The notes under the pieces are model-generated. The model saw only the letters and a list, made by a program, of their open reading frames with translations, did not search any database and was not told where the DNA came from. 64,000 bases of DNA from Schmidtea nova (lineage: Eukaryota): assembly GCA_044892505.1 (NCBI GenBank), contig CM097884.1, positions 17,298,001 to 17,362,000 on the forward strand, written 5' to 3'. Each line of letters begins with the position of its first letter. The first letter of the stretch is position 1. The position numbers and the translations under genes were made by a program. Positions 10,699-33,790 of this stretch are shown here, piece after piece.

Positions 10699-10854
10699 TA
10701 TCAATAATTCTCATAATGACTATAGATCAAAATTTTTTTTTATAAACACACTTGATAAAGGCTGTGCCGAAATATTGTGTTATTGTTTATAAAAAAAATT
10801 TTGATCTATAGTCATTATGAGAATTATTGATAATAATAATAAAAAAAGATCAAA
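10650..10854. repeat. (AAT)n plus inverted dimer of the hammerhead-containing repeat
   Basis: Partial left arm followed by the reverse-complement arm CTTGATAAAGGCTGTGCCGAAATATTG...AAAGATCAAA running into a gap. Confidence 0.9.
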
Positions 10855-11972: not shown

Positions 11973-12214
11973 AATAATAATAATAATATCATAATTATCT
12001 TTTTTCACCTTTGATCCTTTTTTAGTATTAATATCGATAATTCCCATAATGAATGACTATAGATCAAAGTTTCTTTAAATAAGTACACAATATTTCGGCA
12101 CATCCTTTATCACAGCCTTTATCACAGCCTTTATCACAGCCTTTATACGCACTTGATAAAGGCTGTGCCGAAAAATTGTGTACTTGTTTAAAGAAATTTT
12201 GATCTATAGTCATC
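11973..12214. repeat. Inverted dimer of the hammerhead-containing repeat with central tandem TTTATCACAGCC copies
   Basis: Arm, then 3-4 tandem CCTTTATCACAG copies, then the reverse-complement arm; slightly diverged. Confidence 0.9.
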
Positions 12215-14347
12215 CATTATGGAAATNNNNNNNNNNNNNNNNNNNNNNNNNNNNNNNNNNNNNNNNNNNNNNNNNNNNNNNNNNNNNNNNNNNNNNNNNN
12301 NNNNNNNNNNNNNNNNNNNNNNNNNNNNNNNNNNNNNNNNNNNNNNNNNNNNNNNNNNTATCTGTAATAAAATGTTTAGAAAAATTTGAATAAAATATAA
12401 AATATAATTTAGATTTGGAAACATTCAATTAATGTAACTTTAATAAATAATTTTCATTCATTTATTAGAGAAAATTCATTATGAAATGCAATTACGAAAA
12501 CTAGATTCATAGAGTATATTTCACTTAAGTGGTTGATGGAAAAATCATATAATTATTATCATGAAAAAGAATAGTCATATTGTGTGAAAATATAAACTAT
12601 TTATTTCATGTATCTCATCCGAGTTGAAATTATAAACAATATTCAGTCAAACTATATCTATACTAATAAAATATTTATTTTGTTACTAAGTATAAATATA
12701 AAATAATAAAATAATAAAATGTTATAATTACACACATATATATATATATAATTTTATTTTAATTCTCAGTGACAATATAAATATAAATATTTTTTATATG
12801 TTNNNNNNNNNNNNNNNNNNNNNNNNNNNNNNNNNNNNNNNNNNNNNNNNNNNNNNNNNNNNNNNNNNNNNNNNNNNNNNNNNNNNNNNNNNNNNNNNNN
12901 NNNNNNNNNNNNNNNNNNNNNNNNNNNNNNNNTTTCTAATATTTTAGTAATAATATAATAATAACAAAATATTTGTTAGCATTGTATAAAATCGTACAAA
13001 AAATGTGCAAAAATTCAATTGCAATGTATATAAACTCCAGCATTTAATAATCACTGTAAAAATAAATTCACCGTAAAATTATATGAAAATAAAATGCATA
13101 GAAAACAAAGTGCTGATCAAATTCAAAAGTTAACAAATAAAGTGCAAAAAAATTGAGAAAATTAATTTATTAATTTAAAATCAAGGAGGGGTCCTCAGAA
13201 ATAAATATTAAGAAAATACAAATTAATGAAAAAATTATTTAACTAATGTAAAACCAGAGCAATGAGAAATCTCAGTCAAAGGAAGACTCGATCAGTGAGA
13301 GAACCCGAATCTAAAACAAACTAGTCATATTTGTTGATTGAATTCGGCAAACTCAAACTATGTAGGAAACCCGAATCAGAAAACAAGTAATTGAATTTGT
13401 TTAGGATAAATTGAAAACTCAGGAGGTAATAAAAGACAAATTGAAAAATTAAATTAATTGTAGAGAATTTTCAAAAATATAAAAAGGAAATCCTACATTA
13501 CTGTCAAATTGAATTAAGACTCAATCAATTTCAGAAACAGGAGTCACTACATAAAGGAAGGAAAATTTTCTTGATGGTCGAAGAAATGTTTCGTGTAGAA
13601 TTCAGAAATTTCTGAAAGTTAGTATAGTAGACAGTGTAAAGAAGATAGTATCAGGTTATCAAATCAATTGCGCCTACCAGAAAGGACGATCTTCCATTGG
13701 GACGACGTAGTCCAAATAATTTAAAATTGATGGGGGATACTCAAGTATTGGTATTATAAAAATACCATCTAATTAACTAATTAACTAATTAATCTAAAAT
13801 TTGTTAATAATTTTATGGGAAAACAATTATTCTTAAATTCGGTAGGCACGAAAGCGACCTGCCAGAGTGCGGTTCAATAGTGGAAAGGATAATTGTGTTA
13901 TTTAGACCAGCAAATGGATAATTAAACAGCTGTAATGAATCGACATTAAAACCGATCTTGTTGTGCCAATTCTGTCTATTTATTGGGACTTAATCAGCAA
14001 TTGGGTTTCAAACGGTTTAAAAACTGGAACAATGATCAAAGTGACAAGAAATCACTATGTGACAAAAAAGAAAAGTTTTTATCAACATAATTGGGGGAAT
14101 TTGCATTAGAGAAAAAGTTGCTACTTTCCCCAGGCATCAACCTCTTCAATATATTATCTTAGGTATACTTTTGTTATAAAGAAATAAAGGTTCTTATTCC
14201 TTGACTTGTGAATTAGAATTGTTTGCGTCAAAGGGATGTGTGTAGTCAATTTGATGTCGAATTCCACCAATACAAATAATGACAAATTTAGTCGTTGTAT
14301 GCGTAGAAACAAATTTAAAGGATAAAATGTATTTCTTTAATGTCTTA

Positions 14348-20461: not shown

Positions 20462-20666
20462 TCATAATTATCTTTTTTCACCTTTGATCTTTTTTTATTA
20501 TTATTATCAATAATTCTCATAATGACTATAGATCAAAATTTTTTTTTTATAAACAATAACACAATATTTCGGCACAGCCTTTATCAAGTCTCAGAAATAC
20601 ACACTTGATAAAGGCTGTGCCGAAATATTGTGTTATTGTTTATAAAAAAAAATTTTGATCTATAGT
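20388..20666. repeat. (AAT)n plus inverted dimer of the hammerhead-containing repeat
   Basis: Full left arm, short spacer, reverse-complement arm into a gap; abuts the 3' LTR. Confidence 0.9.
20596..20637 (+). ncRNA. Minimal type I hammerhead-like ribozyme (U3:A8 variant), representative copy
   Basis: Stem I AATA(C)ACAC/GTGTTATT, core TTGATAA plus one extra A, stem II GGC-tgt-GCC, GAAA, palindromic ATAT stem III, putative cleavage triplet AUU (20627-20629). Confidence 0.6.
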
Positions 20667-20847: not shown

Positions 20848-23468
20848 GGTTAAAACAAAATAGTAAATTAAACTAATAATTATTTTTAAACGCTCTAGGG
20901 ATTCCTCCATCCAAAACCTCACATAAAATGCTTACATATCACACGAGCACCCTCGATCATTTCCCTATAATAATCGAGTTGGAAATGTGCAAGGTGTTTG
21001 AACAATGATGGGCAGGTGAGCTCTATTGCTAAAACTACTCCCCATTTATGTTCACGGGTTCGTCTCGCTGCCGATAGAAGGACTTACGCTTAAATTTTAA
21101 TCTATCCGCATCCATTTATCTGTCATCTCAATTATCTCTTTTCGCCCCCTTTCGTTACAATATATTTCAACTTTCAACTTTCTTTCAGCCCCCTTCTTTA
21201 CAATATCAACAAATAATATTTTTACGATATGTTATTTCTTTAATGCTATTATTGTTCATTACTTTGTGTCAATCTTTTATTTATAATCTACCTTTAATTT
21301 AATTTAGAAATCCCTTAATAAAATACTTTAGTTCATATACTTTACAATAAAATAAATACAAAACAAAAATTATTTAATAAGCAAAATTTACAAATCACAA
21401 AATTTCTAATCAAAATATTTAGAAATGTCTTCATCTGATATTGTAAAATTCATGTTCAAATCAATTTCTGGAATGTTGTTTGATCGTTGTGCCAATTGCT
21501 GGAGAACTTGTTTCTTCCAGCGACGCTGACGCGCGCCCATCTTACTCTTCTTTTTCTTTTTGACTTCTGGAATTATTACGTCCTTTGGTGTGATTGAGGC
21601 CGCCGTTGCTTGAACCTGAGATGGTTCCTCTGTGCTTGTTCCTTTTGAGCATCCTGCCTTTTCGTCAGCCCAATGCTGGTAAGTGATTGGTCGAATGAGC
21701 TGGCTGAGCTCTTGAGTTAGATATGATGCCGTTACAGATTTTAGGCATTTCTTTAATTCCATCTTCGTTGCGTCCAATTCCATTTGCAGTTCGCTGTTAG
21801 CTCGCTGTGAGCGTTGAGTTTTGGTGATTTGCATTTTCATTTGGTCTGGACTGAACCAGCTTTTCTTTAGGTTGGAAATTATTCCATCGGCTTCTTTTAT
21901 TTTCTCTGACTTTCGCAGCATTTCCTTTTCCAGGCTGCGAATTATTCTCCAGGCTTTGTCTAATTCGGCTTGATTGGTTGCTGTGTTTGCTGACATTTTC
22001 TAAAATTCAAAATGGTTTATTGACATGAAGTTAGTAGTCTTGATTCGAACGATTCTCATACCTTTGACAATTGGTAATTGTTAATTTAGGAAAAGAAAAT
22101 GATGTACCTATTACGCTTTCAACACTGTCGCTATGTACAGCGATCAGATACATTTATGTCATAATATGTTTTATTTCCACCTGTGCTATATACAGCAATC
22201 AGGTTACAAAATTATTTAAATAAACTAAGATCCGCTGCCCTATGTACAGGGTTCAGGATAAGCAATTATATTTAATTATTTAGGTGGACTGTTTGATCCT
22301 ATAGCCTATTGCTGCTATGTTACTTGCGTAGTAGATCACTACGCTATTAAATTATCGATTTTTATGTTATTGTTAAAATTACATTTTGTACAAATTCTTA
22401 ACCCTGCATCTGCCGCTCTATGCCCACAAACCCCAGATGTGACAATCGAAAAATATAGATTCACTCTCTGTGAATTCGAAAGAAAATCAGGTTAATCAAA
22501 TCGTAGTTACGTCTGTATCCAACTAGAATCAAACTCTATTCAACTATAAACTCATGAAAAACTAAATCGGTTAGAAAATAAAACTTCAACTGGTTATACT
22601 ATCCAGTGAAAAATAGGGTTAAAAATCAGGGTTAAATAAAAATTCCTACCCTCGTCACGGCGCTTTACACCGGTCGGACGGCCTAACTGTACGGAGCAGT
22701 CGTTTCTACTCGGCACAGTATGCCTCCATGTTCCCTATTGCACGGTGAACGGAGCCCCTTAAATCATACGTAATTTTATACTATAAATACGGTATATAGA
22801 TAATATATATTCGCCTCCTTCCACTGATTTCACAGTGGAAGAAGCTTGGTTTAATTCTATACTCGAAAAAAAATTTAAAAATCATATATCATAAAATATT
22901 TTATTAATAATTAACTACAATGGTCAATGACAGATAATCATAAAATTTATAAATTCAATAAACAAAAATACTCATACCTTTCAAGTTCTGTTCAAATATC
23001 TTTCAGTATCAAATAATCACAAGATCATAAAATCATAAAAGCATAAGCATATATTTTAACTGAATCTGGATCAGTATATATACTGATCAGATCAGATCAC
23101 TGACCAATCAGCTTGAAGCTGATGGTCATCAATGCAATTCTATTAAAATCAAAAATCGATTTTATTAATAAATATGATTTGCATTTTCTGGTTTTAATTT
23201 ATCGAATTTTTATTAATTCTTCTTCTTTTTTACTTATTTATTTCGCTTTCTTATTATTTAAATATAATTAAATATCATTTTCTTTAACGTTTTTACATTA
23301 TACATTTATTTTCTTCCAATTTTTTTATATTAAATTAATATTCTTTATTACATTTTAATTCGTTTTTACTGATATTTTCATAATTATATTTATTTTAATT
23401 TATTCTTATTTTCTCTCTTATTATTATTATTTTTTATGCTAAATGTGGACCAAATGGTGGATCCAACA
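20848..23468 (-). repeat. 3' LTR (left end hidden in N gap)
   Basis: Matches 35262-37882; ends ...GGATCCAACA on +. In spot comparison I saw only two substitutions (22629/37043 and 22736/37150). Confidence 0.92.
21406..21996 (-). CDS. LTR-encoded 196-aa coiled-coil protein with basic cluster (3' LTR copy)
   Basis: Intact ORF identical to 35820-36410; contains KKKKKSKMGARQRRWKK; preceded by ttttAG-aaa-ATG. Confidence 0.65.
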   Translation of the reverse strand: MSANTATNQAELDKAWRIIRSLEKEMLRKSEKIKEADGIISNLKKSWFSPDQMKMQITKTQRSQRANSELQMELDATKMELKKCLKSVTASYLTQELSQLIRPITYQHWADEKAGCSKGTSTEEPSQVQATAASITPKDVIIPEVKKKKKSKMGARQRRWKKQVLQQLAQRSNNIPEIDLNMNFTISDEDISKYFD

Positions 23469-23658: not shown

Positions 23659-24222
23659 TTATTGTTTATACAAATAGTTCATAACTCGCACTGGATTGGA
23701 CTGGTTCTGTGGAATTGCTGGTAACTCGTATTGGGTTCGTATTCTGTTGAACTGATTTCTCATTTGTCTTCGGGCATTGTCATCGTATGCTGTTGTTTGA
23801 TTGATGATCGATTGTTTTTGTTTTAGGATCTTTATTCTATATACTGCGATGAGAATGGTAATTGCGCAGGTTGTTGTACTAATTGTTAATACGATTATAA
23901 TCGCAACGATCCATCTCTCTTGGTATTGAATTTCTGCTCGATGTAAATTCTTTATAGTTTCTTTACTTTCTTTTAAGGTTTTTCGAATCTTCTCTAATTT
24001 GTTATTGATTTTGCACAGGGTTTGTTGCGTTGATACTGGGTTAGGTGCTGTTGACAATTGAATTTGAGATATTTCTTTGATTGCTTCTTTTAATAGATTA
24101 TCTATTTCTTTATAGATTTTTTCGGGTAAGACTTGTAGGTTTTCTTTTAATATCGGACGGTCTTCTCTTTGTTGGGTGATTTCGATTACGTTTAGGATTA
24201 TTAGTATTACGAGCTTCTTCAT
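23659..24222 (-). CDS. 187-aa putative type I membrane protein (signal-like N-terminus, coiled coil, TM)
   Basis: MKKLVILIILNVI N-terminus, amphipathic middle, TM WIVAIIIVLTISTTTCAITILIAVY followed by RIKILKQK. Last ORF before the 3' LTR. Confidence 0.7.
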   Translation of the reverse strand: MKKLVILIILNVIEITQQREDRPILKENLQVLPEKIYKEIDNLLKEAIKEISQIQLSTAPNPVSTQQTLCKINNKLEKIRKTLKESKETIKNLHRAEIQYQERWIVAIIIVLTISTTTCAITILIAVYRIKILKQKQSIINQTTAYDDNARRQMRNQFNRIRTQYELPAIPQNQSNPVRVMNYLYKQ

Positions 24223-24298: not shown

Positions 24299-25402
24299 TT
24301 AAACTAACGACTCATTGGGTTCGTGAAAACCTTCATCTTGAGGTTCCACTTGGTTTGTAGGGGGTGGTAACCACACTATCGTGTTTCTCCACATTGTTAC
24401 TTCATCTCGATAGAAGTGTGACAATTGAATTTCTTCGTCTAACAGGTATTCTAAATAATTTGATTGTTCTGTTAACGCTTCGATCTGTTTTTCTAATTCT
24501 GTTATTTTATTGTTTTTCTCTTCCTCTTCCATCATTTTTATTACTGCTTTGGTGATATCTGTCTCTTTTGGTGGTGTTAATTTTTGTATCAATTTTTGTT
24601 TCAACTCTTCATTTTCTTTGGTTAGATTTAATAAATTTTCCTCATAGCTTTGTTTTGCTTCTTTTAATTTTAATAAATTTTCTTCATAGCTTTGTTTTGC
24701 TTCTTCTAATCTTTCTTTAGTTTTCTTTAATTCTATCTTCTTTTGAGTGATTACTCCTTGATAACCATTAATATCGCGCTTCATATCTTCCTCTTTCTGC
24801 ATCCCTGCTCTGAGGTTTGCATCGGATTGTTGTTTACTGAAATATAATTCTCTTTCCGATCTTTCAATCTGGTGCATAAGTTGTTTAATTTTTCCTGCTT
24901 GCTCTCTGATGAATTGTTGTCTCTTTATATTCCATTTCTTGCTCGATATTTCCTGATAGGTTTTCTGTTCTAATTCCTCTTTTAATTTATCGATTTCTTC
25001 AAATAACTTCCAATCATCGCTGTACGCCGTTCTTTCGATTATTTCTCTTGCTTTCGTATAAGATTCTTTCGCTTCTTTTTTCCAATATCTTGCTTGCTCG
25101 GTAATGGAGTACATTTTCCGTTCCATTTCTGTTCGTTCTCGCTCTCTTTCTTCTCGTCGTTCTTTCATCATCTTTTTATAATATTCTTTTTGTTTCTCTA
25201 ATAATTCATATAATTCGTCTATTTTATCTTGACTTAATCGCTTTAATCTTTTGGCTTCTGTTATTTGTTCGGCTTGTCTTTCTACTTCTTTTTGTTTGTG
25301 GTAATATGCGTGGATCCAACTTTTAATTTGTTCTAAATGCTCACAAATAACTTCATCTTGATGTTCGGTTACTTCTTGTAAACTGATTTCGACGTTTCCC
25401 AT
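24299..25402 (-). CDS. 367-aa long coiled-coil protein
   Basis: Intact E/K/Q-rich heptad-like ORF with an internal 14-aa duplication (EAKQSYEENLL x2); no recognisable catalytic motif. Confidence 0.75.
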   Translation of the reverse strand: MGNVEISLQEVTEHQDEVICEHLEQIKSWIHAYYHKQKEVERQAEQITEAKRLKRLSQDKIDELYELLEKQKEYYKKMMKERREERERERTEMERKMYSITEQARYWKKEAKESYTKAREIIERTAYSDDWKLFEEIDKLKEELEQKTYQEISSKKWNIKRQQFIREQAGKIKQLMHQIERSERELYFSKQQSDANLRAGMQKEEDMKRDINGYQGVITQKKIELKKTKERLEEAKQSYEENLLKLKEAKQSYEENLLNLTKENEELKQKLIQKLTPPKETDITKAVIKMMEEEEKNNKITELEKQIEALTEQSNYLEYLLDEEIQLSHFYRDEVTMWRNTIVWLPPPTNQVEPQDEGFHEPNESLV

Positions 25403-25506: not shown

Positions 25507-26862
25507 CTACGCCAACCATCCTTTTCTATCTGCCTTCTCGTTCCTTTCCATTTCTATGTATAAGGTGTCCTCATACAATAATCCCCATATCTTGCTTTGT
25601 AATACAAAGTGTGGTTCTCCACTTGCTAATCCACATTCTTCTGTTGGTCTGTTACTCGTAACTGCTCCTTTGTCTGTCGTGAATCTCTTTTCTATGGTTT
25701 CGTTTAAACCCCTGATTTTTATCATTACTCCTACTCCTATCGGCCAATCGATTAACTCGTCATATTCTCCTTTGCAAAACGCAAAAAATATTGATATATG
25801 TTTTCCCATACTTTTCCCATCTCCGTTTGGATATACTTTCAATCTCACTTTAGCCCCGTTTTTCCATAAGTAAAATGGTGGGCTTATTACCGCAGTTTTC
25901 TTGAAGCTTCGTGCATCTTCCAATTTATTTCGAAAATCCGTTATTTTCCACACATAAGGTGCTATTGGTAAATCTTTTTTCTCATCAATTTCTTGTATTA
26001 ACTTGTTATATTGCACTTTCATTCCTTTTGCTAATTTTTTAATGGTTATTATTTTTTCTTCCATCTTTTCTCGGGTTAATTCAAACTGTTCTCTCGTTTC
26101 TAATAATAGGTTCATCATTATCTTATGAGATTCCACTTCTTTTTCCAATTTCTGAATTGTTCTGTCTGTCATTTCAATATGATTGATTGCTTCTGTTTCT
26201 AAATGTTGTTTCATATTTTGTTGAGACTTCTTTTCCTTGCATCCATATCTGTTGTAAGGACATTCTCTTGGTATTTCTGTACACTTTTTCCAATGTTCTC
26301 GTAATTTCACTTCTTCGGTAATTTCACATTTGTTTGGGCACACTCCTACATACTGTTCGCATATTCTCTCTTCTTTTATATTGATGTGCTCTTCTTCAAT
26401 TTTTCTCCTTGTTTCTCGAATTTCGCAATATTCACATGCGATTTCTTCCTCTTTGCATTCATCTCTGTGTTTATCTTTGTCTTTTAAAATTATCGTTTCT
26501 TTACACTTTTCACATTCGCTTCTCTTTTCTTCACAATTTTCTATATGATTTTCAATTTCACTGATTTGTCCTTGCCATATGCACGGTGGATTTATACATT
26601 CAATTAATATGTTCATGATTTCTCTCTGAGTTGCTCTATCTGGTCTCGTTTCGTCTAACACTATTTGTCCTTCTTTACATTCTGGACATTCTGTTATTCC
26701 TTTTAACTCTAACATTTGTACACATCTAGTGCATAATCTACATCCACAGGCGGTTTGCTTTGGTTTCCGTAATAAATTATTACAATATCCACATACAAAT
26801 CTCTTGTTCCAATTTCTGTTTGCTGCTCTCAAAATCTCGACTGCTCGTTCTTCTTTATCCAT
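25507..26862 (-). CDS. TRAF: TRAF-family protein (RING, TRAF zinc fingers, coiled coil, MATH/TRAF-C)
   Basis: RING CGYCNNLLRKPKQTACGCRLCTRC...CPEC; PDRATQREI...CxWQG; MATH YVWKITDF...SPPFY...KVRLKVYPNGDGKSMGKHISIFF...KGEYDELIDWP parallels TRAF2/3/5. Start MDKEER (26862) is favoured over 26886 because of the adjacent acceptor-like AG. Intronless. Confidence 0.92.
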   Translation of the reverse strand: MDKEERAVEILRAANRNWNKRFVCGYCNNLLRKPKQTACGCRLCTRCVQMLELKGITECPECKEGQIVLDETRPDRATQREIMNILIECINPPCIWQGQISEIENHIENCEEKRSECEKCKETIILKDKDKHRDECKEEEIACEYCEIRETRRKIEEEHINIKEERICEQYVGVCPNKCEITEEVKLREHWKKCTEIPRECPYNRYGCKEKKSQQNMKQHLETEAINHIEMTDRTIQKLEKEVESHKIMMNLLLETREQFELTREKMEEKIITIKKLAKGMKVQYNKLIQEIDEKKDLPIAPYVWKITDFRNKLEDARSFKKTAVISPPFYLWKNGAKVRLKVYPNGDGKSMGKHISIFFAFCKGEYDELIDWPIGVGVMIKIRGLNETIEKRFTTDKGAVTSNRPTEECGLASGEPHFVLQSKIWGLLYEDTLYIEMERNEKADRKGWLA

Positions 26863-26957: not shown

Positions 26958-27293
26958 CTATGGTTCGCTTGTTGAATCTGGTTCCATACCATTCTCTAAT
27001 CCATTTATTACCCAATCTAGCCATTGACCTTCTGATTCATCTCTTCTTGTTAGTTGATTTATTTCCATCGTCTGTCTCAATCTCTGATTCTCTCTTGTTA
27101 GTTCTGTTATTGTTCTCTGTTGCTCTTCTATTTTATGTAACTGCTCAAAAATATTGTTGTAACAATCTGCTAATATATTCTGCTTCTCTACCAATTGATT
27201 CTGTAGTGCATTAATTGATCGAACTAACGTTTCACATTGTGATTTCCATCGCATAGTCAAAGTCATTTCGGTTGTTTCTTCTCGTACATTCAT
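26958..27293 (-). CDS. 111-aa short coiled-coil protein, unknown function
   Basis: Intact ORF with heptad pattern and ttttAG-aaa-ATG context like its neighbours. Confidence 0.6.
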   Translation of the reverse strand: MNVREETTEMTLTMRWKSQCETLVRSINALQNQLVEKQNILADCYNNIFEQLHKIEEQQRTITELTRENQRLRQTMEINQLTRRDESEGQWLDWVINGLENGMEPDSTSEP

Positions 27294-27415: not shown

Positions 27416-28561
27416 CTATACTATCATCACTGCCTTTTCATCGTGTCGCTCCTCGTCTTCGATCTGCTTCCAAAATTCTTTGCCTTTGGTTCTTCTTTGG
27501 AATTCTTTCTTTACTTCTTCTGGTATCTTGATTTTACAATTCATAATCTTTATATCTGGCCATTGTCTGGTTGGTTTCTTTTTTATTATGTCCCATAGCC
27601 ATATTATTGATAGTATTATTATTACTGGTACGCATACTGCTAGTATTCCTACTCCAATTAGTTCTCTTCTTTGCTTGTTAATATTAATTTGGGTGAATTT
27701 GCTTTGGTTGATCATTGGTCCATATTGTCCTTTCAATTTGAGTTCCAATTGTTGTCGTTCTTGTTGTTTCCTTTTGACTTCCTGGATTACTTTTTCTGGT
27801 TTCCATTGTGCATAAGAATCTATTATTGTTTCCTCGTTTTCCATTTGTTTCGTTGTTTGATTGAGTTCTCCAAAAGTTAGTTTCCTGATTCTTCCTTTGA
27901 TCGTTGTATTTGTCGGTGTATAGTAATTTCCACATTTTTCTTGCTGGTTTCCAAATTTATCTGCCTTCTCTATTGCGCATATTTCGTATTGTTTGTCCAA
28001 TTGTAGGTTCTGAATTCTGATCTCCTCTTCTTTATTCATCTTTTCGCATTGTTGTGGTTGTCTTTCCTCGTATTTCTTGATCATTGTCCAACATATTTCC
28101 ACTGTTTTGTCATCTAATTTCCAAAGTATAAGTGTTGCTGAGGTTTTCCTCTCTGGTTCTGTTTGACTTTTGGTAGTGGTATGCTTCGGTTTTTGTTGAC
28201 TTTTATTCTTTCGTATTGCTTTATTGGTTTTTACTCTGTTCGGTGCTTTGTATATTCTGCATTCTAAATCTTCTTTCGTTATTTGATCATTTTCTTTTAC
28301 TAGGCATATTTCATACGTTTGATTTCTTTCTAAGCTTTTTATTTGTACTTCAGTTGTTCCTCTGATTGTTTGACATTGTGATGATTTAGGTTTGTTCGCT
28401 TCTTTCTCGTATTTTCTCCAGCATACTCCGTTTACGTTTTGTTCTATTCCCGTTATTTCTAACGTTATGGTTAATTTCTGGTTCATATTTGTCTTCCATT
28501 TCTGGTCTAAATTCTTCTTCATATATACCTCCTTTTGCTTTCCAGCATTTCTCTTTAACAT
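27416..28561 (-). CDS. 381-aa protein with two FN3-like repeats and a C-terminal TM helix
   Basis: Two internal repeats: VCWR...IKSLERNQTYEICLV...C...Y and ICWT...IQNLQLDKQYEICAI...C...Y (FN3 LxPxTxYxxCV-like pattern). TM LIGVGILAVCVPVIIILSIIWLW followed by KKK. No signal peptide; overlaps the Gag 3' end. Confidence 0.7.
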   Translation of the reverse strand: MLKRNAGKQKEVYMKKNLDQKWKTNMNQKLTITLEITGIEQNVNGVCWRKYEKEANKPKSSQCQTIRGTTEVQIKSLERNQTYEICLVKENDQITKEDLECRIYKAPNRVKTNKAIRKNKSQQKPKHTTTKSQTEPERKTSATLILWKLDDKTVEICWTMIKKYEERQPQQCEKMNKEEEIRIQNLQLDKQYEICAIEKADKFGNQQEKCGNYYTPTNTTIKGRIRKLTFGELNQTTKQMENEETIIDSYAQWKPEKVIQEVKRKQQERQQLELKLKGQYGPMINQSKFTQININKQRRELIGVGILAVCVPVIIILSIIWLWDIIKKKPTRQWPDIKIMNCKIKIPEEVKKEFQRRTKGKEFWKQIEDEERHDEKAVMIV

Positions 28562-31500
28562 CCCAGTGTTTCTCTACTGGTGTTAATCGGCGTTCGTTGA
28601 AGTTTAATTCTCCTAATATATTTTCCCATTCTGGCTGTATCTGCCATCTTCGATAAATTTCTATTATTTGTCTTAGTTTGTGCATCGCTTCTCTTTGACG
28701 TTCTTGTCTCCTTTTTTCGTCTTTTGGTGTTTCTCTTGGTGTATCATCCATTCTGATAACATGAATTGTTTGGTAATTATCCCATATACCAATTTTATAT
28801 AATCGTCTCTCATCATGATCCCCTAGTACGTGTTCATTATATTTCATGATGATATCGTCTACCAATTCGTCTTCTTTTTCCCGTTGTAATAAAGTCTCAT
28901 TGATAACATCAACTAATTCTTCTATTGTGCAATCCGCGATTACTTCAATTTCTTTTGTGTCTTCGTTTGGTAATTTCACTTTGATTTTTAAATCTCCTAT
29001 TTCTCCTCGTTTAAACATCGCTTTTCCCATTTTCGCGATCACTCTCCAAGTCTTGTATGACGAATGTCTCGTATGGCTGGTATCTCGTATATTTTCGATG
29101 CATTGTTTTAATTTCTCATATTCAGTTTTTGTTAATTCTTCTCTATTCTTGTCGATTTGTTGAATAATTTGTTCTATTAGTGAATTTAAATTTTCTCTGA
29201 GAATTCTTTCTTTCCTTTCTACTAACTGAGGTTTAATTCTCATCTCAAAACACATATTTGCTTCCTTTGCGATTTCTTGTAAATTTTCCTCTTTCTTATT
29301 GTCGCATATTGATAATGTTGTTATCTCTCCTGGCCATATGCCTGTTTCTACCAAATGCGTTGCTCGTCTTACAAGTTCATTTCCTGAATATATGAATTTG
29401 TTTTTATATGAACTTCCCAATCTGTCTTCTACCCATCGATAAATTTCGTTCGTGCATGGAGATTTGATCCAAATTCTTGGTGAACATTCGTTTATTTCTA
29501 TTAAAATTATATATTCATGGAGTGGTTCATCTAATAGTTTGACGACGTATCCTGATAATATCTCTACTTCACGACTTTGTAACCGTTCTTTATAGTTCAT
29601 TCGGAATACTGCTCTTATAAATTTTCGATATCGCTTCTTCTCAATAAATTCCTCGTTATAAATCACTTCTAACGCATTATCTAATAGTTTCTGAATTTCA
29701 TCTTCTTTAATTTGTATATTTTCTGGCGTCTTCGCTACTTCTATCTTGTTGTCTTCATTTTCTGGTTCTTTTAGCATATCTCCTGCTAAACTACTGACAT
29801 CACTGTCACTTTCTACATCTGAAAATTCTCTAGTTAAGTTTCTTAACATGTTTATATGTGTTGTCTGTTCTACTTTATCTGGTACATTTTTTGGTGGTAT
29901 CTCTTCTTTTTTGTCATTGTTTTCTGGTTCTTCTATTTGGCCTCTTCGTTTTTCTATTTCCATTGCTTTTCTCTGTTTGATTCTCTCTTCAAATATCTTC
30001 AATGCTCTACTTTTGACTTTTGTTACTGGTTTTGATTTCTCTTCATCGTTATTTTCTTCTATTTCTTGGATAACTGTGACTTTCATTTTATTCATTGGTA
30101 CTCCTAAATCTTTCCATATGTCAGTTGGTTTTAATTTTATTGCTGCTTCGTCTTCTGTCTGTAAGAATGCTTCTCGGGGTAGTTTCGTCGTTCCCGGAAT
30201 CGTCTTGTTTACTTTATTAATTAATACTCCTACTTCCTCTTTTTCATCATATTCAAATCGAAATACATGATCGTTTGGCATGACTACCAACATCCTTTCT
30301 TGTTCAATAACTTCTTCGTTTTCTTGTACTTTTTCTTTTTGGTTTTCTTCGTCTACTAAATTAGGTTTTATCTGATTTGTTTCTGGTTCAATATCTTCCT
30401 TGTTATCTCTTGTTTGATTCGCTGCTCTCATCATATTAATTCTCAATGGTTGTCGTTCTCTTTCTTGTCGTTTCTGTTCGTCTTCTCTTTGTATTCTTGC
30501 CCATTCTTGAGCATGTCGTGCTTGACTTTCTCGATTTAGTCGTTCATTTTCACTTTCTACTTTTCTCATCATATTCATTTGTTGTTGATTCGTTTGTTGA
30601 TTTCCTCTCGGTGTATTGTTTATTAACTCTGTCAATCTCTGAACTTCTTGTAGTAAATGTATTTCTTTGGTGGTACTTTTATTCTCGTTGTAACTACTCT
30701 GTTGATTTCCAAAATTCTGACGGTTTCCGTTATTCTGTCGATTATCATAATTTTGTCGATTTCCGTTGTTCGACCAATTCCTTTGCTGGTTGTTTTGTTG
30801 TTGGCAGTTTCTTGCCATATGACCTGGTTGTCCACAGTTATAACATGAATTCAGGTAACATCTACTTTCCGAATGTCCTTTTCTTCCACACTTTTTACAA
30901 TTTAAATTCGCGAAACATTCTTGTTGCCAATGTCCTAACTTTCCACAGGTTTGACATTGCTTTGTCTGTCCTTGCGTATTATAATTATTTTGGTTTCCGA
31001 AATTTTGTACTTTGTTTCCCTCATTTCTCCTTTGAGGTGGTGGTCGATTTAATTGCTGTGAGTTCGGAATATGGTTATTTATCTTTATTGCTTGTTCGTT
31101 TTGTGTCGTATCCATTGCTAGGTAAATTCTTCCTTCACTTCCGATCATATGTAATTCGAATCTGTTAGCAATTTCCAACGCTTCATCTATTGTTTTACAA
31201 CCTTGGCATCCAACTTGTGCTCTTATATCGGGTCTTCTCAATCCCCCCACAAAAATTGCTGCCATTAATTCTGGACTCATTGGACTATTTTGATTAAATG
31301 CTAATTTAGCCAATTTCTTTAATTCACTTGCATATACCGCATTTGATTCATTAACTTTTTGTTTCCTCATTGAAAATTCTGTAAACGCTTCATTTAATAC
31401 TTTATTTATTCCAAACGTTTGCTGGAAAAAATTCTTTATCTTTTCCCAACTATCGAGTTGATCATCTGAATTTTTAGCTTCTAAATATAAATCTAACGCA

Positions 31501-32033
31501 CTGTCTTTTAAATATAACTGAATTCTGCTCCTTATCGTTTCTGGTTTCCATTTACACACTTCTACAAATATACCAAATTCTTTTAAAAACGTTTCTAACT
31601 TGCTGGCATCTCCATTGAATGGTTCTCCAGTAAATTTATCTTTGATTTCTTCTTTATGTTCGTTCATTTCGATTCCGCTGTCTTGTGTCGTTTTACTCTC
31701 GTTTCCTCTTGTTTCACTAGTATGCTCGTTATTCGTTTCGTTTGAATTATTATCAATTTCTGCTTCTACTTCTTCTGTGTTTATTGACTCGTTATCTGAT
31801 GCTTCCGTATTATTATAATTATCGTAGGTTTCACTTGAACTTTCTTCTGTTTCACTTTCGTTAGTTTTTGTTAATTTATTGTTTTCGATTTTTGACTTTT
31901 CTACTATTACTCTTCTTGATTTACTTCCTTTAGGATTTGTTTTCTTTGTAACACTGGTTGCTCTTTGTTTCGATTTATTTCTCTGTGAATTATCAACTTT
32001 TTTGATTGTAGCACTAACTGCTCTTGATCTCAA
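28386..32033 (-). CDS. gag: Extended Gag polyprotein: capsid, 3 CCHC zinc knuckles, N/Q-rich and E/K-rich linkers, two ubiquitin-like domains
   Basis: Capsid: FNGDASKLETFL...YLKDSALDLY...SWEKIKNFF...RKQKVNESNAVYASEL (Ty3/Gypsy-type). CX2CX4HX4C x3 at 30804-30956. Ubl-like segments at 29307-29513 and 28752-28991. The frame is open from 32126 but has no early ATG, so the start is uncertain. Confidence 0.85.
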   Translation of the reverse strand: MRSRAVSATIKKVDNSQRNKSKQRATSVTKKTNPKGSKSRRVIVEKSKIENNKLTKTNESETEESSSETYDNYNNTEASDNESINTEEVEAEIDNNSNETNNEHTSETRGNESKTTQDSGIEMNEHKEEIKDKFTGEPFNGDASKLETFLKEFGIFVEVCKWKPETIRSRIQLYLKDSALDLYLEAKNSDDQLDSWEKIKNFFQQTFGINKVLNEAFTEFSMRKQKVNESNAVYASELKKLAKLAFNQNSPMSPELMAAIFVGGLRRPDIRAQVGCQGCKTIDEALEIANRFELHMIGSEGRIYLAMDTTQNEQAIKINNHIPNSQQLNRPPPQRRNEGNKVQNFGNQNNYNTQGQTKQCQTCGKLGHWQQECFANLNCKKCGRKGHSESRCYLNSCYNCGQPGHMARNCQQQNNQQRNWSNNGNRQNYDNRQNNGNRQNFGNQQSSYNENKSTTKEIHLLQEVQRLTELINNTPRGNQQTNQQQMNMMRKVESENERLNRESQARHAQEWARIQREDEQKRQERERQPLRINMMRAANQTRDNKEDIEPETNQIKPNLVDEENQKEKVQENEEVIEQERMLVVMPNDHVFRFEYDEKEEVGVLINKVNKTIPGTTKLPREAFLQTEDEAAIKLKPTDIWKDLGVPMNKMKVTVIQEIEENNDEEKSKPVTKVKSRALKIFEERIKQRKAMEIEKRRGQIEEPENNDKKEEIPPKNVPDKVEQTTHINMLRNLTREFSDVESDSDVSSLAGDMLKEPENEDNKIEVAKTPENIQIKEDEIQKLLDNALEVIYNEEFIEKKRYRKFIRAVFRMNYKERLQSREVEILSGYVVKLLDEPLHEYIILIEINECSPRIWIKSPCTNEIYRWVEDRLGSSYKNKFIYSGNELVRRATHLVETGIWPGEITTLSICDNKKEENLQEIAKEANMCFEMRIKPQLVERKERILRENLNSLIEQIIQQIDKNREELTKTEYEKLKQCIENIRDTSHTRHSSYKTWRVIAKMGKAMFKRGEIGDLKIKVKLPNEDTKEIEVIADCTIEELVDVINETLLQREKEDELVDDIIMKYNEHVLGDHDERRLYKIGIWDNYQTIHVIRMDDTPRETPKDEKRRQERQREAMHKLRQIIEIYRRWQIQPEWENILGELNFNERRLTPVEKHWDVKEKCWKAKGGIYEEEFRPEMEDKYEPEINHNVRNNGNRTKRKRSMLEKIRERSEQT

Positions 32034-32870
32034 TTTATTTCTTTGTGAATTATTAACTTCTTGATTTTTAACTGTTCTTGATCTCGATTTACTTCTCTTT
32101 AATTTATCAATTTTTCTGTTTCTCTGTTATCGTATTCTGATTGATTGGTTGGTTGTTTGACTTGTTCTGTTCCGTGTATCTAAATTAAAAAGTCACTTCA
32201 ACGATACATCATTGTTATCGTTGCGCTTTTATTCCTCATTATTGGGTTTCCATTGTTTCCCCATTCCCGGTTTCCCCTTTATTTAAGTCTATTTAAATTA
32301 TCTATTCACTGGTAACAATTATCTATATGGTCGTAATAATTATCTATCGTTATCAAATAAATTCATTACTTTTCCCTCAGTCTCCCAATTTAATTTGTCG
32401 CTCAAACGCTTTAATTCCCTTGAGCTCTCCTGACTCAATTATCATTTTATTACTATTCATTATATCATCATTACTCACTATTCTCACTAATCAACTCTAA
32501 TTTCTCATCATTACTCACTATTCTCACTATTTCTACCGGTTTTTTTCCGGTCAACTCTAATTTCTCTTATTCCTATTTCTACTCGTATGCATACTGAATC
32601 TCTAGTTTACTTAATCATCTTTACTCGTATTACTCAATTTCTAGTGCTCATTACTCTTAACATCGTCGACGATTACAACTTGGTTTTATTTCATCTCTGT
32701 TGCTTATTTATTCCCTTGGCTCTCTACGCCATAATTTAATTTATTCACTTGACTCTTCTCTAATTTATTCACTTATTCACTTGGCTCTTCTATGCCCTAA
32801 TTTAATTTATTCGCTTGACTCCATGGCCCTTCTCTAGGGAAAATACCTTCTTAGAGAATAATCACCTGCT

Positions 32871-33790
32871 TAGTTAGGCCTTTGACCCTTCTTTCGGGGT
32901 AATCTTAAATAATCTGACTTGTTTGCTCTTGACCTTTTTTTTACAAGGTATTTAACTAATATGGCTTGTTTGCCCTTGACTCTTCTTTCAGAGTATTTGA
33001 CTAATATGGCTCGTTGGCCCTTGACCTTTTTGTACAAGGTATTTAACTCATCTGGCTTGTTTGCCCTTGACTCTTCTTTCCGAGTATTCAACTAATATGG
33101 CTCGTTGGCCCTTGACCTTTTTGTACAAGGTATTTACTCATCTGGCTTGTTTGCCCTTGACTCTTTTTCCAGAGTATTCAACTAATATGGCTCGTTGGCC
33201 CTTGACCTTTTTGTACAAGGTATTTAACTCATCTGGCTTGTTTGCCCTTGACTCTTCTTTCAGAGTATTCAACTAATATGGCTCGTTGGCCCTTGACCCT
33301 TCTTTCAGAGTAATTAACTAATACGGCTCGTTGGCCCTTGACCCTTCTTTCAGAGTAATTAACTAATACGGCTCGTTGGCCCTTGACCCTTCTTTCAGAG
33401 TAATTAACTAATACGGCTCGTTGGCCCTTGACCCTTCTTTCAGAGTAATTAACTAATACGGCTCGTTGGCCCTTGACCCTTCTTTCAGAGTAACTAATAT
33501 GGCTTATTTGCCCTTGACCCTTCTTTCAGAGTAACTAATATGGCTTATTTGCCCTTGACCCTTCTTTCAGAGTAACTAATATGGCTTATTTGCCCTTGAC
33601 CCTTCTTTCAGAGTAACTAATATGGCTTATTTGCCCTTGACCCTTCTTTCAGAGTAACTAATATGGCTTATTTGCCCTTGACCCTTCTTTCAGAGTAACT
33701 AATATGGCTTGTTTGCCCTTGACCCTTCTTTCAGAGTAACTAATATGGCTTATTTGCCCTTGACCTTTTTATACAAGGTATTTAACTAAT
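32871..33790. repeat. Hierarchical tandem array in element leader (90-91, 45 and 41 bp units)
   Basis: All units share the core GCCCTTGAC. 90-91 bp dimers at ~33017-33198, 45-bp units x4 at 33281-33461, 41-bp units x7 at 33469-33756. Confidence 0.95.

Follow-up and report, generated by a model that had tools for sequence, protein, structure and literature searches.

Giant env-bearing Ty3/Gypsy retroelements of a Burro-like clade in Schmidtea nova carry a full-length TRAF gene as a conserved accessory gene. We found this gene in the window, which is the whole stretch of 64,000 nucleotides analysed here (contig CM097884.1, positions 17,298,001 to 17,362,000), as a stop-free ORF of 451 aa on the minus strand (25507-26862) that sits within a 17-kb LTR element. 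Five element lineages, A to E, were distinguished by their flanks, and every one of them contains the same cassette; the window copy belongs to lineage A. Both cassette neighbours of the TRAF gene were present at 58 of the 58 element-type TRAF loci and at none of the eight host-like loci.

Structure of the element in the window

The LTRs of the window element are direct repeats 14,414 bp apart, and with only two differences in 2,621 comparable bases the insertion is very young. Along the element strand, the first LTR is followed by the IAP-type RING ORF, the tandem arrays, gag, an FN3-like/transmembrane remnant, the 111-aa ORF, TRAF, the 367-aa ORF, the 187-aa transmembrane ORF and the second LTR; the cassette ORFs are separated by 77-123 bp. 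The features are:

35243..37882, minus strand: 5' LTR of 2,640 bp with TG...CA ends (repeat comparison)
35820..36410, minus strand: 196-aa ORF inside the LTR, second copy at 21406-21996 (homologues in lineages B, C and D)
35219..35236, minus strand: primer-binding-site-like 18-mer after the 5' LTR, presumably of the tRNA-Pro type (same start in lineages B, C and E)
34384..34845, minus strand: 153-aa ORF with a C-terminal IAP-type RING (zf-C3HC4_3, E=1e-11) and no BIR (homologues in B, C and E)
32861..33850, minus strand: tandem arrays in the leader with 45/46-bp and 41-bp units, families D3 and D4 (repeat analysis)
28386..32126, minus strand: gag ORF with capsid, three CCHC knuckles and a weak ubiquitin-like segment, shortened by an internal deletion
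28473..28481, minus strand: deletion junction with 9-bp microhomology (comparison with sister copies)
27416..28573, minus strand: FN3-like and transmembrane remnant of the polyprotein C-terminus (fn3 E=0.016, weak; sister copies)
26958..27293, minus strand: 111-aa coiled-coil-like ORF, always immediately upstream of TRAF, with an invariant C-terminal EPDS
25507..26862, minus strand: full-length TRAF with a RING of eight Cys, TRAF zinc fingers, coiled coil and MATH (Pfam, solved-structure matches, ligand alignment, AlphaFold)
24299..25402, minus strand: 367-aa coiled-coil-like ORF with a C-terminal DEGFxE invariant across A-E
23659..24222, minus strand: 187-aa ORF whose hydrophobic stretches resemble a signal sequence and a transmembrane segment (homologues in B, C and D)
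20848..23468, minus strand: visible part of the 3' LTR, its outer end within an N stretch (repeat comparison)

The env, PR, RT, RH, IN and ankyrin regions known from sister copies are missing from the window copy through the deletion at 28473-28481, and this copy is non-autonomous. Pfam gave no match for the 367-aa ORF. The C-terminal motifs EPDS (26958-27293) and DEGFxE (24299-25402), which are invariant in all five lineages, presumably recall SPOP/MATH-binding and phospho-independent beta-TrCP degrons and are regarded here as putative.

The initial annotation had described a complete RING-zinc finger-coiled coil-MATH protein in one intronless ORF, and the single 451-aa frame indeed showed all of these parts. 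Pfam matched MATH_2 (E=2e-21), TRAF-mep_MATH (1e-17) and zf-TRAF (5e-8), the MATH models being PF22486 and PF21355. Among solved structures, the N-terminus with RING and TRAF zinc fingers matched the RING/zinc-finger chains of TRAF5, TRAF6 and TRAF2 (E 3e-14 to 2e-10); for the C-terminal TRAF-type MATH domain, the matches were those of TRAF3/2/5 (E about 1e-20). An AlphaFold model built on a 51-row alignment (mean pLDDT 88.9) contained a helix at residues 225-295, representing the coiled coil ahead of MATH, followed by a beta-rich domain at 303-440; its pTM was just 0.41, in keeping with an extended monomer. No Pfam RING model matched the window TRAF at E<=1, and the TRAFs of lineages B and C gave sub-threshold matches to TRAF3_RING. 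The alignment shows an intact set of eight RING cysteines and of zinc-finger ligands across all five lineages. An alternative in-frame ATG lies 24 nt upstream of the TRAF start, and the alignment with the sister lineage favours 26862 as the start. The MATH groove, which reads KPD...SACY in host-like TRAFs, has become TTD...AVTS in lineage A. With vertebrate TRAF2/3/5 the element protein has RING, zinc fingers, coiled coil and MATH fold in common, but it differs from them in the His-to-Cys exchange of the RING, a shorter coiled coil and the loss of the groove serine triad.

Sister copies and element lineages

The order PR-RT-RH-IN is present in the sister copies L008 and L021, in which env, PR, RT, RH, IN and ankyrin form a single frame. 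Together with the TG...CA ends of the LTRs and the primer-binding-site-like 18-mer, this order represents the Ty3/Gypsy traits of the clade. The env of the sister copies was recognised ahead of PR by a Monjiviricetes_fusion match (E=2e-66), and Ank matches followed IN. Ten lineage-A copies were fetched from the TRAF matches and not randomly; two of these contain the complete env-PR-RT-RH-IN-ankyrin region as one frame, and the other eight (L024, L026, L028, L029, L033, L035, L037 and L040) have a common in-frame deletion of 3,018 bp covering RT-RH-IN. The deletion is associated with a microhomology of about 17 bp, and protease and ankyrin are kept in 8/8 and env in five of these copies, which constitute an amplified non-autonomous sub-lineage. 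A protease-to-ankyrin join resembling this deletion was observed in D and E copies. We also considered the deletions as copies of spliced RNA and rejected this idea, since the junctions show the 9-bp and about 17-bp microhomologies and not GT-AG.

Copies of lineages B, C, D and E are surrounded by LTR pairs with 99.6-100% identity, and 4-bp target-site duplications were found at one D and one E copy among three copies examined. The lineage-D copies examined are without RT-IN, and two scanned lineage-E copies gave no match for gag, env, RT or IN; the TRAF gene is kept in both cases. The lineage-E elements (L075-L078, L079-L082) are about 25-27 kb long with LTRs of 4.5 kb and carry RING, protease-ankyrin, TRAF, a BIR+RING IAP as the ORF directly after TRAF, and four further ORFs. 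One lineage-E copy (L093) is without TRAF. Each of the two host TRAF clusters that were fetched also has a lineage-E element no more than about 10 kb away (L092, L093), which may be due to chance, given the copy number of these elements.

No MATH domain matched inside the scanned gag frames of lineages A, B, C and D, the TRAF being a separate 3' ORF. The gag and env-pol frames are split by an in-frame stop in two B copies and one D copy (L007:8632-8637, L018, L072), and the frame is open at this place in lineage-A copies. A helical segment with a BH2-like GGW motif lies just ahead of the env signal peptide in one lineage-A copy (L029:3843-4406) and is missing from the window copy. Its top match was Bcl-xL, at E>=0.7, and in a low-confidence model Bcl-2 folds appeared with Z 5-6 among unrelated rows. 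The ubiquitin-like segment before env gave a weak match to Rad60-SLD (E=0.046).

We compared the layout of this clade with the published description of the giant Gypsy elements Burro/GYPSM1 (PMC6431247). Like our elements, these have three CCHC knuckles in Gag, a giant frame in which env lies between gag and pol, ankyrins, apoptosis/ubiquitin cargo including MATH and BIR, and a size of about 25-30 kb; their ubiquitin-like segment may have a counterpart in the weak one seen here. With env between gag and pol, three knuckles and ankyrin, the layout identifies the clade as Burro-like, env-bearing giant Gypsy elements. MATH, BIR, BCL2-like and ankyrin cargo of Burro has been on record before (PMC6431247). 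In the Burro1 description, however, MATH lies inside the polyprotein, and in an element of Girardia/Dugesia tigrina it lies in an upstream ORF (both PMC6431247), whereas a complete TRAF is encoded here by a separate ORF downstream of pol in a fixed cassette. The Burro1 B-IAP (Lee et al. 2026, via PMC13465017) is a host-derived regulator of cell death carried by a giant retroelement of planarians, and lineage E likewise carries a BIR+RING IAP; the cargo described here differs in being a TRAF, and the RING ORF of lineage A has no BIR. The literature searched contained no description of a full-length free-standing TRAF ORF in Burro-like elements, an earlier description elsewhere being possible.

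Selection and composition

The NG86 dN/dS values within the lineages were 0.21 for A, 0.11 for B, 0.12 for C, 0.18 for D and 0.18 for E, as calculated from 11, 8, 19, 6 and 12 copies with intact frames, respectively (broken copies were excluded, as was one C copy whose start had been called wrongly); the choice of intact top matches and the use of NG86 under transition bias lower these values. Variants shared within a lineage gave 0.10-0.22. The comparison of A with B yielded 0.16 at a dS of 1.25, with 0.30 for the RING, 0.10 for the zinc fingers, 0.05 for the coiled coil and 0.23 for MATH; the corresponding value for RT-RH-IN was 0.015. Synonymous sites are nearly saturated between the lineages, and frame and ligands survive, a combination that neutral carriage cannot produce and that indicates purifying selection on the element TRAF. 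A captured gene that merely rides along on young elements and is intact by recency would fit the very young window insertion with its two LTR differences, and our sampling favoured intact copies. Set against the near-saturation of synonymous sites in a kept frame with kept ligands, the A-B value and those of the shared variants, such a passenger is very improbable.

Amino acid identity of the TRAF between A and B, C, D or E was 71, 48, 46 and 36%, and that of the protease was 92, 77, 74 and 54%, which is the same order. This parallel divergence fits vertical co-inheritance after one capture. The element TRAFs are rich in A, as are gag and pol, and their AT skew of 0.29-0.45 is closer to that of gag (0.39) than to that of host-like genes (0.13-0.18), in line with the proposal made at the outset that the composition of the gene had adapted to the element.

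Relation to host-like TRAF genes

Three clusters of host-like TRAFs (C2 452.9 Mb, C2 416.8 Mb and C3 43.8 Mb) consist of single open frames of 417-509 codons. The absence of introns from the element TRAF had initially been read as a sign of retro-transduction, on the premise that host copies normally contain introns. Because the host-like TRAFs are likewise without coding introns, this feature is silent on the route of capture, and we rejected intron loss as proof of retro-transduction. A family search for a TRAF6-type host gene had no match, nor had its control, and intron-bearing host genes of the TRAF4/6 type may well exist in addition to these clusters.

Element and host-like TRAFs share about 25-30% identity. 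In a tree of 54 of 79 rows (25 were dropped, namely 22 His-type and 3 Cys-type), one clade with an SH-aLRT of 97 comprised the element TRAFs together with three unnamed proteins from the database and contained no host-like gene; several element rows failed the composition test, and part of this support may be compositional. A Dugesia japonica TRAF grouped with two host-like genes of this genome, and the named homologues come from Dendrocoelum and Dugesia. An origin as a recent copy of one host gene was rejected by AU tests, in which trees that join lineage A to any one of the three host genes or pairs tried did not stand (p 3e-70, 5e-10 and 2e-8). The phylogeny thus placed the gene in a separate clade with many insertions and not as a near-identical host copy confined to a single insertion. 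Of the ancient retro-transduced capture suggested in the initial annotation, the age stands, as judged from the many insertions, the low identity and the rejected nesting within host genes; the retro-route, as deduced from missing introns, does not. The TRAF gene probably goes back to a single ancient capture from a triclad host. The triclad host TRAF2/3/5-like proteins (Dendrocoelum TRAF-2/-4/-5, Dugesia japonica TRAF-2-like A) have the same architecture, length and Cys RING, and those of this genome the same single open frame; in contrast to them, the element TRAFs form their own A-rich clade with an altered MATH groove and occur in hundreds to a thousand copies.

The RING of the window TRAF reads CGYC...QTACGCRLCTRC...CPEC, with Cys41 in place of His. 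Among 152 homologues examined, 118 bear a RING, and the equivalent position is His in 84 and Cys in 22 of them; paddlefish TRAF2, for example, reads QCGHRFC at this site. All six host-like TRAFs of this genome with an in-frame RING read CGC, and the Dendrocoelum TRAFs also have the Cys-type RING. The Cys-type planarian and element rows fell into one branch (SH-aLRT 93 in the 54-row tree), and a crinoid TRAF3-like protein has acquired Cys at this site independently. The exchange noted initially is therefore real, but because it is common to all six RING-bearing host-like TRAFs and those of Dendrocoelum, it is evidently a trait of the triclad host lineage, and its interpretation as an adaptation of the element was rejected. 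RINGs with eight cysteines, such as that of CNOT4, are active ligases.

Proposed function of the element TRAF

A YAG is located 1-3 nt before the TRAF ATG in all five lineages, compared to 41 of 356 element-strand ATGs as background. These acceptor-like sites and the short ORF spacing suggest spliced subgenomic mRNAs, from one of which the TRAF would be made. Cis-splicing from the LTR leader would be the default; spliced-leader trans-splicing may also occur, being listed as possible in flatworms in the literature. The TRAF would trimerise, as expected by homology, and might co-operate with the IAP-type RING proteins of the element; its action would be pro-survival for the host cell, and the window copy would be mobilised in trans.

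Three features suggest an active adaptor/E3 scaffold: the RING and zinc fingers are intact, the coiled coil is constrained, and the gene has IAP-type neighbours. We regard it as slightly on the probable side that the element TRAF acts as such a trimeric scaffold and rewires host TRAF-IAP survival or immune signalling in favour of element-expressing cells. The altered MATH groove of lineage A suggests that its ligands have changed and may differ from host receptors. In favour of the scaffold also count the TRAF gene followed by a BIR+RING IAP in lineage E, the protection of stem cells from apoptosis reported second-hand for the BIR-RING protein of Burro1 (PMC13465017), and the requirement of planarian host TRAFs for cell survival, as stated in PMC8807557. 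Counted against it are the altered groove, the BIR-less RING ORF of lineage A, the TRAF-less copy L093, and the tails of element membrane proteins, in eight of which no canonical TRAF2/3-type motif was found (one tail contained one PxExx). It is via the BIR that cIAPs bind TRAF2.

Alternatively, the element TRAF might join or compete with host TRAFs, or have a host signalling protein degraded through recruited IAP-type ligases, and thereby damp an immune or death response directed against the element rather than activate survival signalling. The divergence of the MATH groove on a conserved fold would suit this, as would the coiled coil as the most constrained part in the A-B comparison, and mammalian TRAF2/3-cIAP complexes are known to degrade NIK. 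However, classical dominant-negative TRAFs are without RING, whereas none of the five lineages has lost any of the eight RING cysteines or the finger ligands, and at so low an identity to host-like TRAFs it is uncertain whether mixed trimers would form. Because the RING is intact and under selection, a simple truncation-type decoy is argued against. We consider the suppression of host responses possible but less likely than not. A role confined to the element cycle, such as ubiquitination of Gag, sorting of particles or binding of the 111-aa and 367-aa proteins, with little effect on host signalling, would account for the fixed order with both neighbours at all 58 loci and for the invariant C-terminal motifs of these proteins. 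It is nevertheless distinctly unlikely, since the lineage-E copies examined gave no gag, env, RT or IN match and still contain intact TRAF and IAP genes in a lineage of more than 1,000 copies; to our knowledge, most Gypsy elements move without a TRAF.

Returning to the adaptor/E3 scaffold, an extended version would combine TRAF and IAP into an operon-like module of spliced accessory genes, which is selected even in stripped derivatives for keeping stem cells alive. The elements would then supply most TRAF genes and thereby explain much of the planarian TRAF expansion and the piRNA targeting of TRAF, ankyrin and E3 transcripts. We put this forward tentatively and consider it rather unlikely as a whole.

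Copy number and the planarian TRAF expansion

Of the 94 full-length matches to the window TRAF in a protein search, 83 were close to the query and 11 stood at about 71%, and searches with three other TRAFs revealed more multi-copy types. Exact-match probes inside the TRAF gene were found at 90 (A), 149 (B), 117 (C) and 1,089 (E) places and the reversed controls at none, where a match shows that the sequence is present and does not prove an intact gene; lineage D was represented by 10 places in a search with another TRAF. At least 1,445 TRAF-type sequences in four retroelement lineages were thus counted versus about a dozen host-like loci, the latter number being a lower bound; the match lists are crowded with element copies, and the true number of host MATH genes is for this reason probably higher. 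The suggestion that such elements add to lineage-specific TRAF expansions is hence supported at the DNA level in this genome, with hundreds to more than 1,000 copies. A word-based protein search gave two distant MATH matches for the TRAF and none for the 367-aa ORF, and no related loci were found in metagenome or viral contigs. One extra MATH-family match outside the TRAF loci (G000:C1:573260048-573260269) came from a family search with two matches in all.

TRAFs are expanded in S. mediterranea (PMC6109357), and the cause of the planarian expansion is called unresolved in PMC8807557; the sections of PMC7586133 and PMC8532177 drawn on here make no link between TRAFs and elements. TRAF, ankyrin and E3 transcripts are enriched among the SMEDWI-3 piRNA targets (PMC6824462). 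These classes match the element cargo, but host tandem arrays fit just as well, because several of the target gene ids given there lie close together and match TRAF weakly. With a full-length gene that is conserved in five lineages, is paired with an IAP and occurs in such copy numbers, the expansion can be tested directly, and it becomes a mapping question of element-borne versus host loci. Element-borne copies may confound RNAi and expression studies of planarian 'traf' genes. After the IAP of Burro1, the TRAF is a second candidate for a captured gene by which a retroelement steers host cell death.

The window element has inserted into an (AAT)n run beside a MITE-like repeat, and a palindromic short MITE-like repeat family is represented at 20544-20648, 37994-38140, 12040-12226 and 10738-10854. 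Elsewhere in the window, we observed fragments of a Tc1/mariner transposase (52109-52843, minus strand) and an RT (46142-46585, minus strand) and a protein-kinase exon (61636-62199, plus strand).
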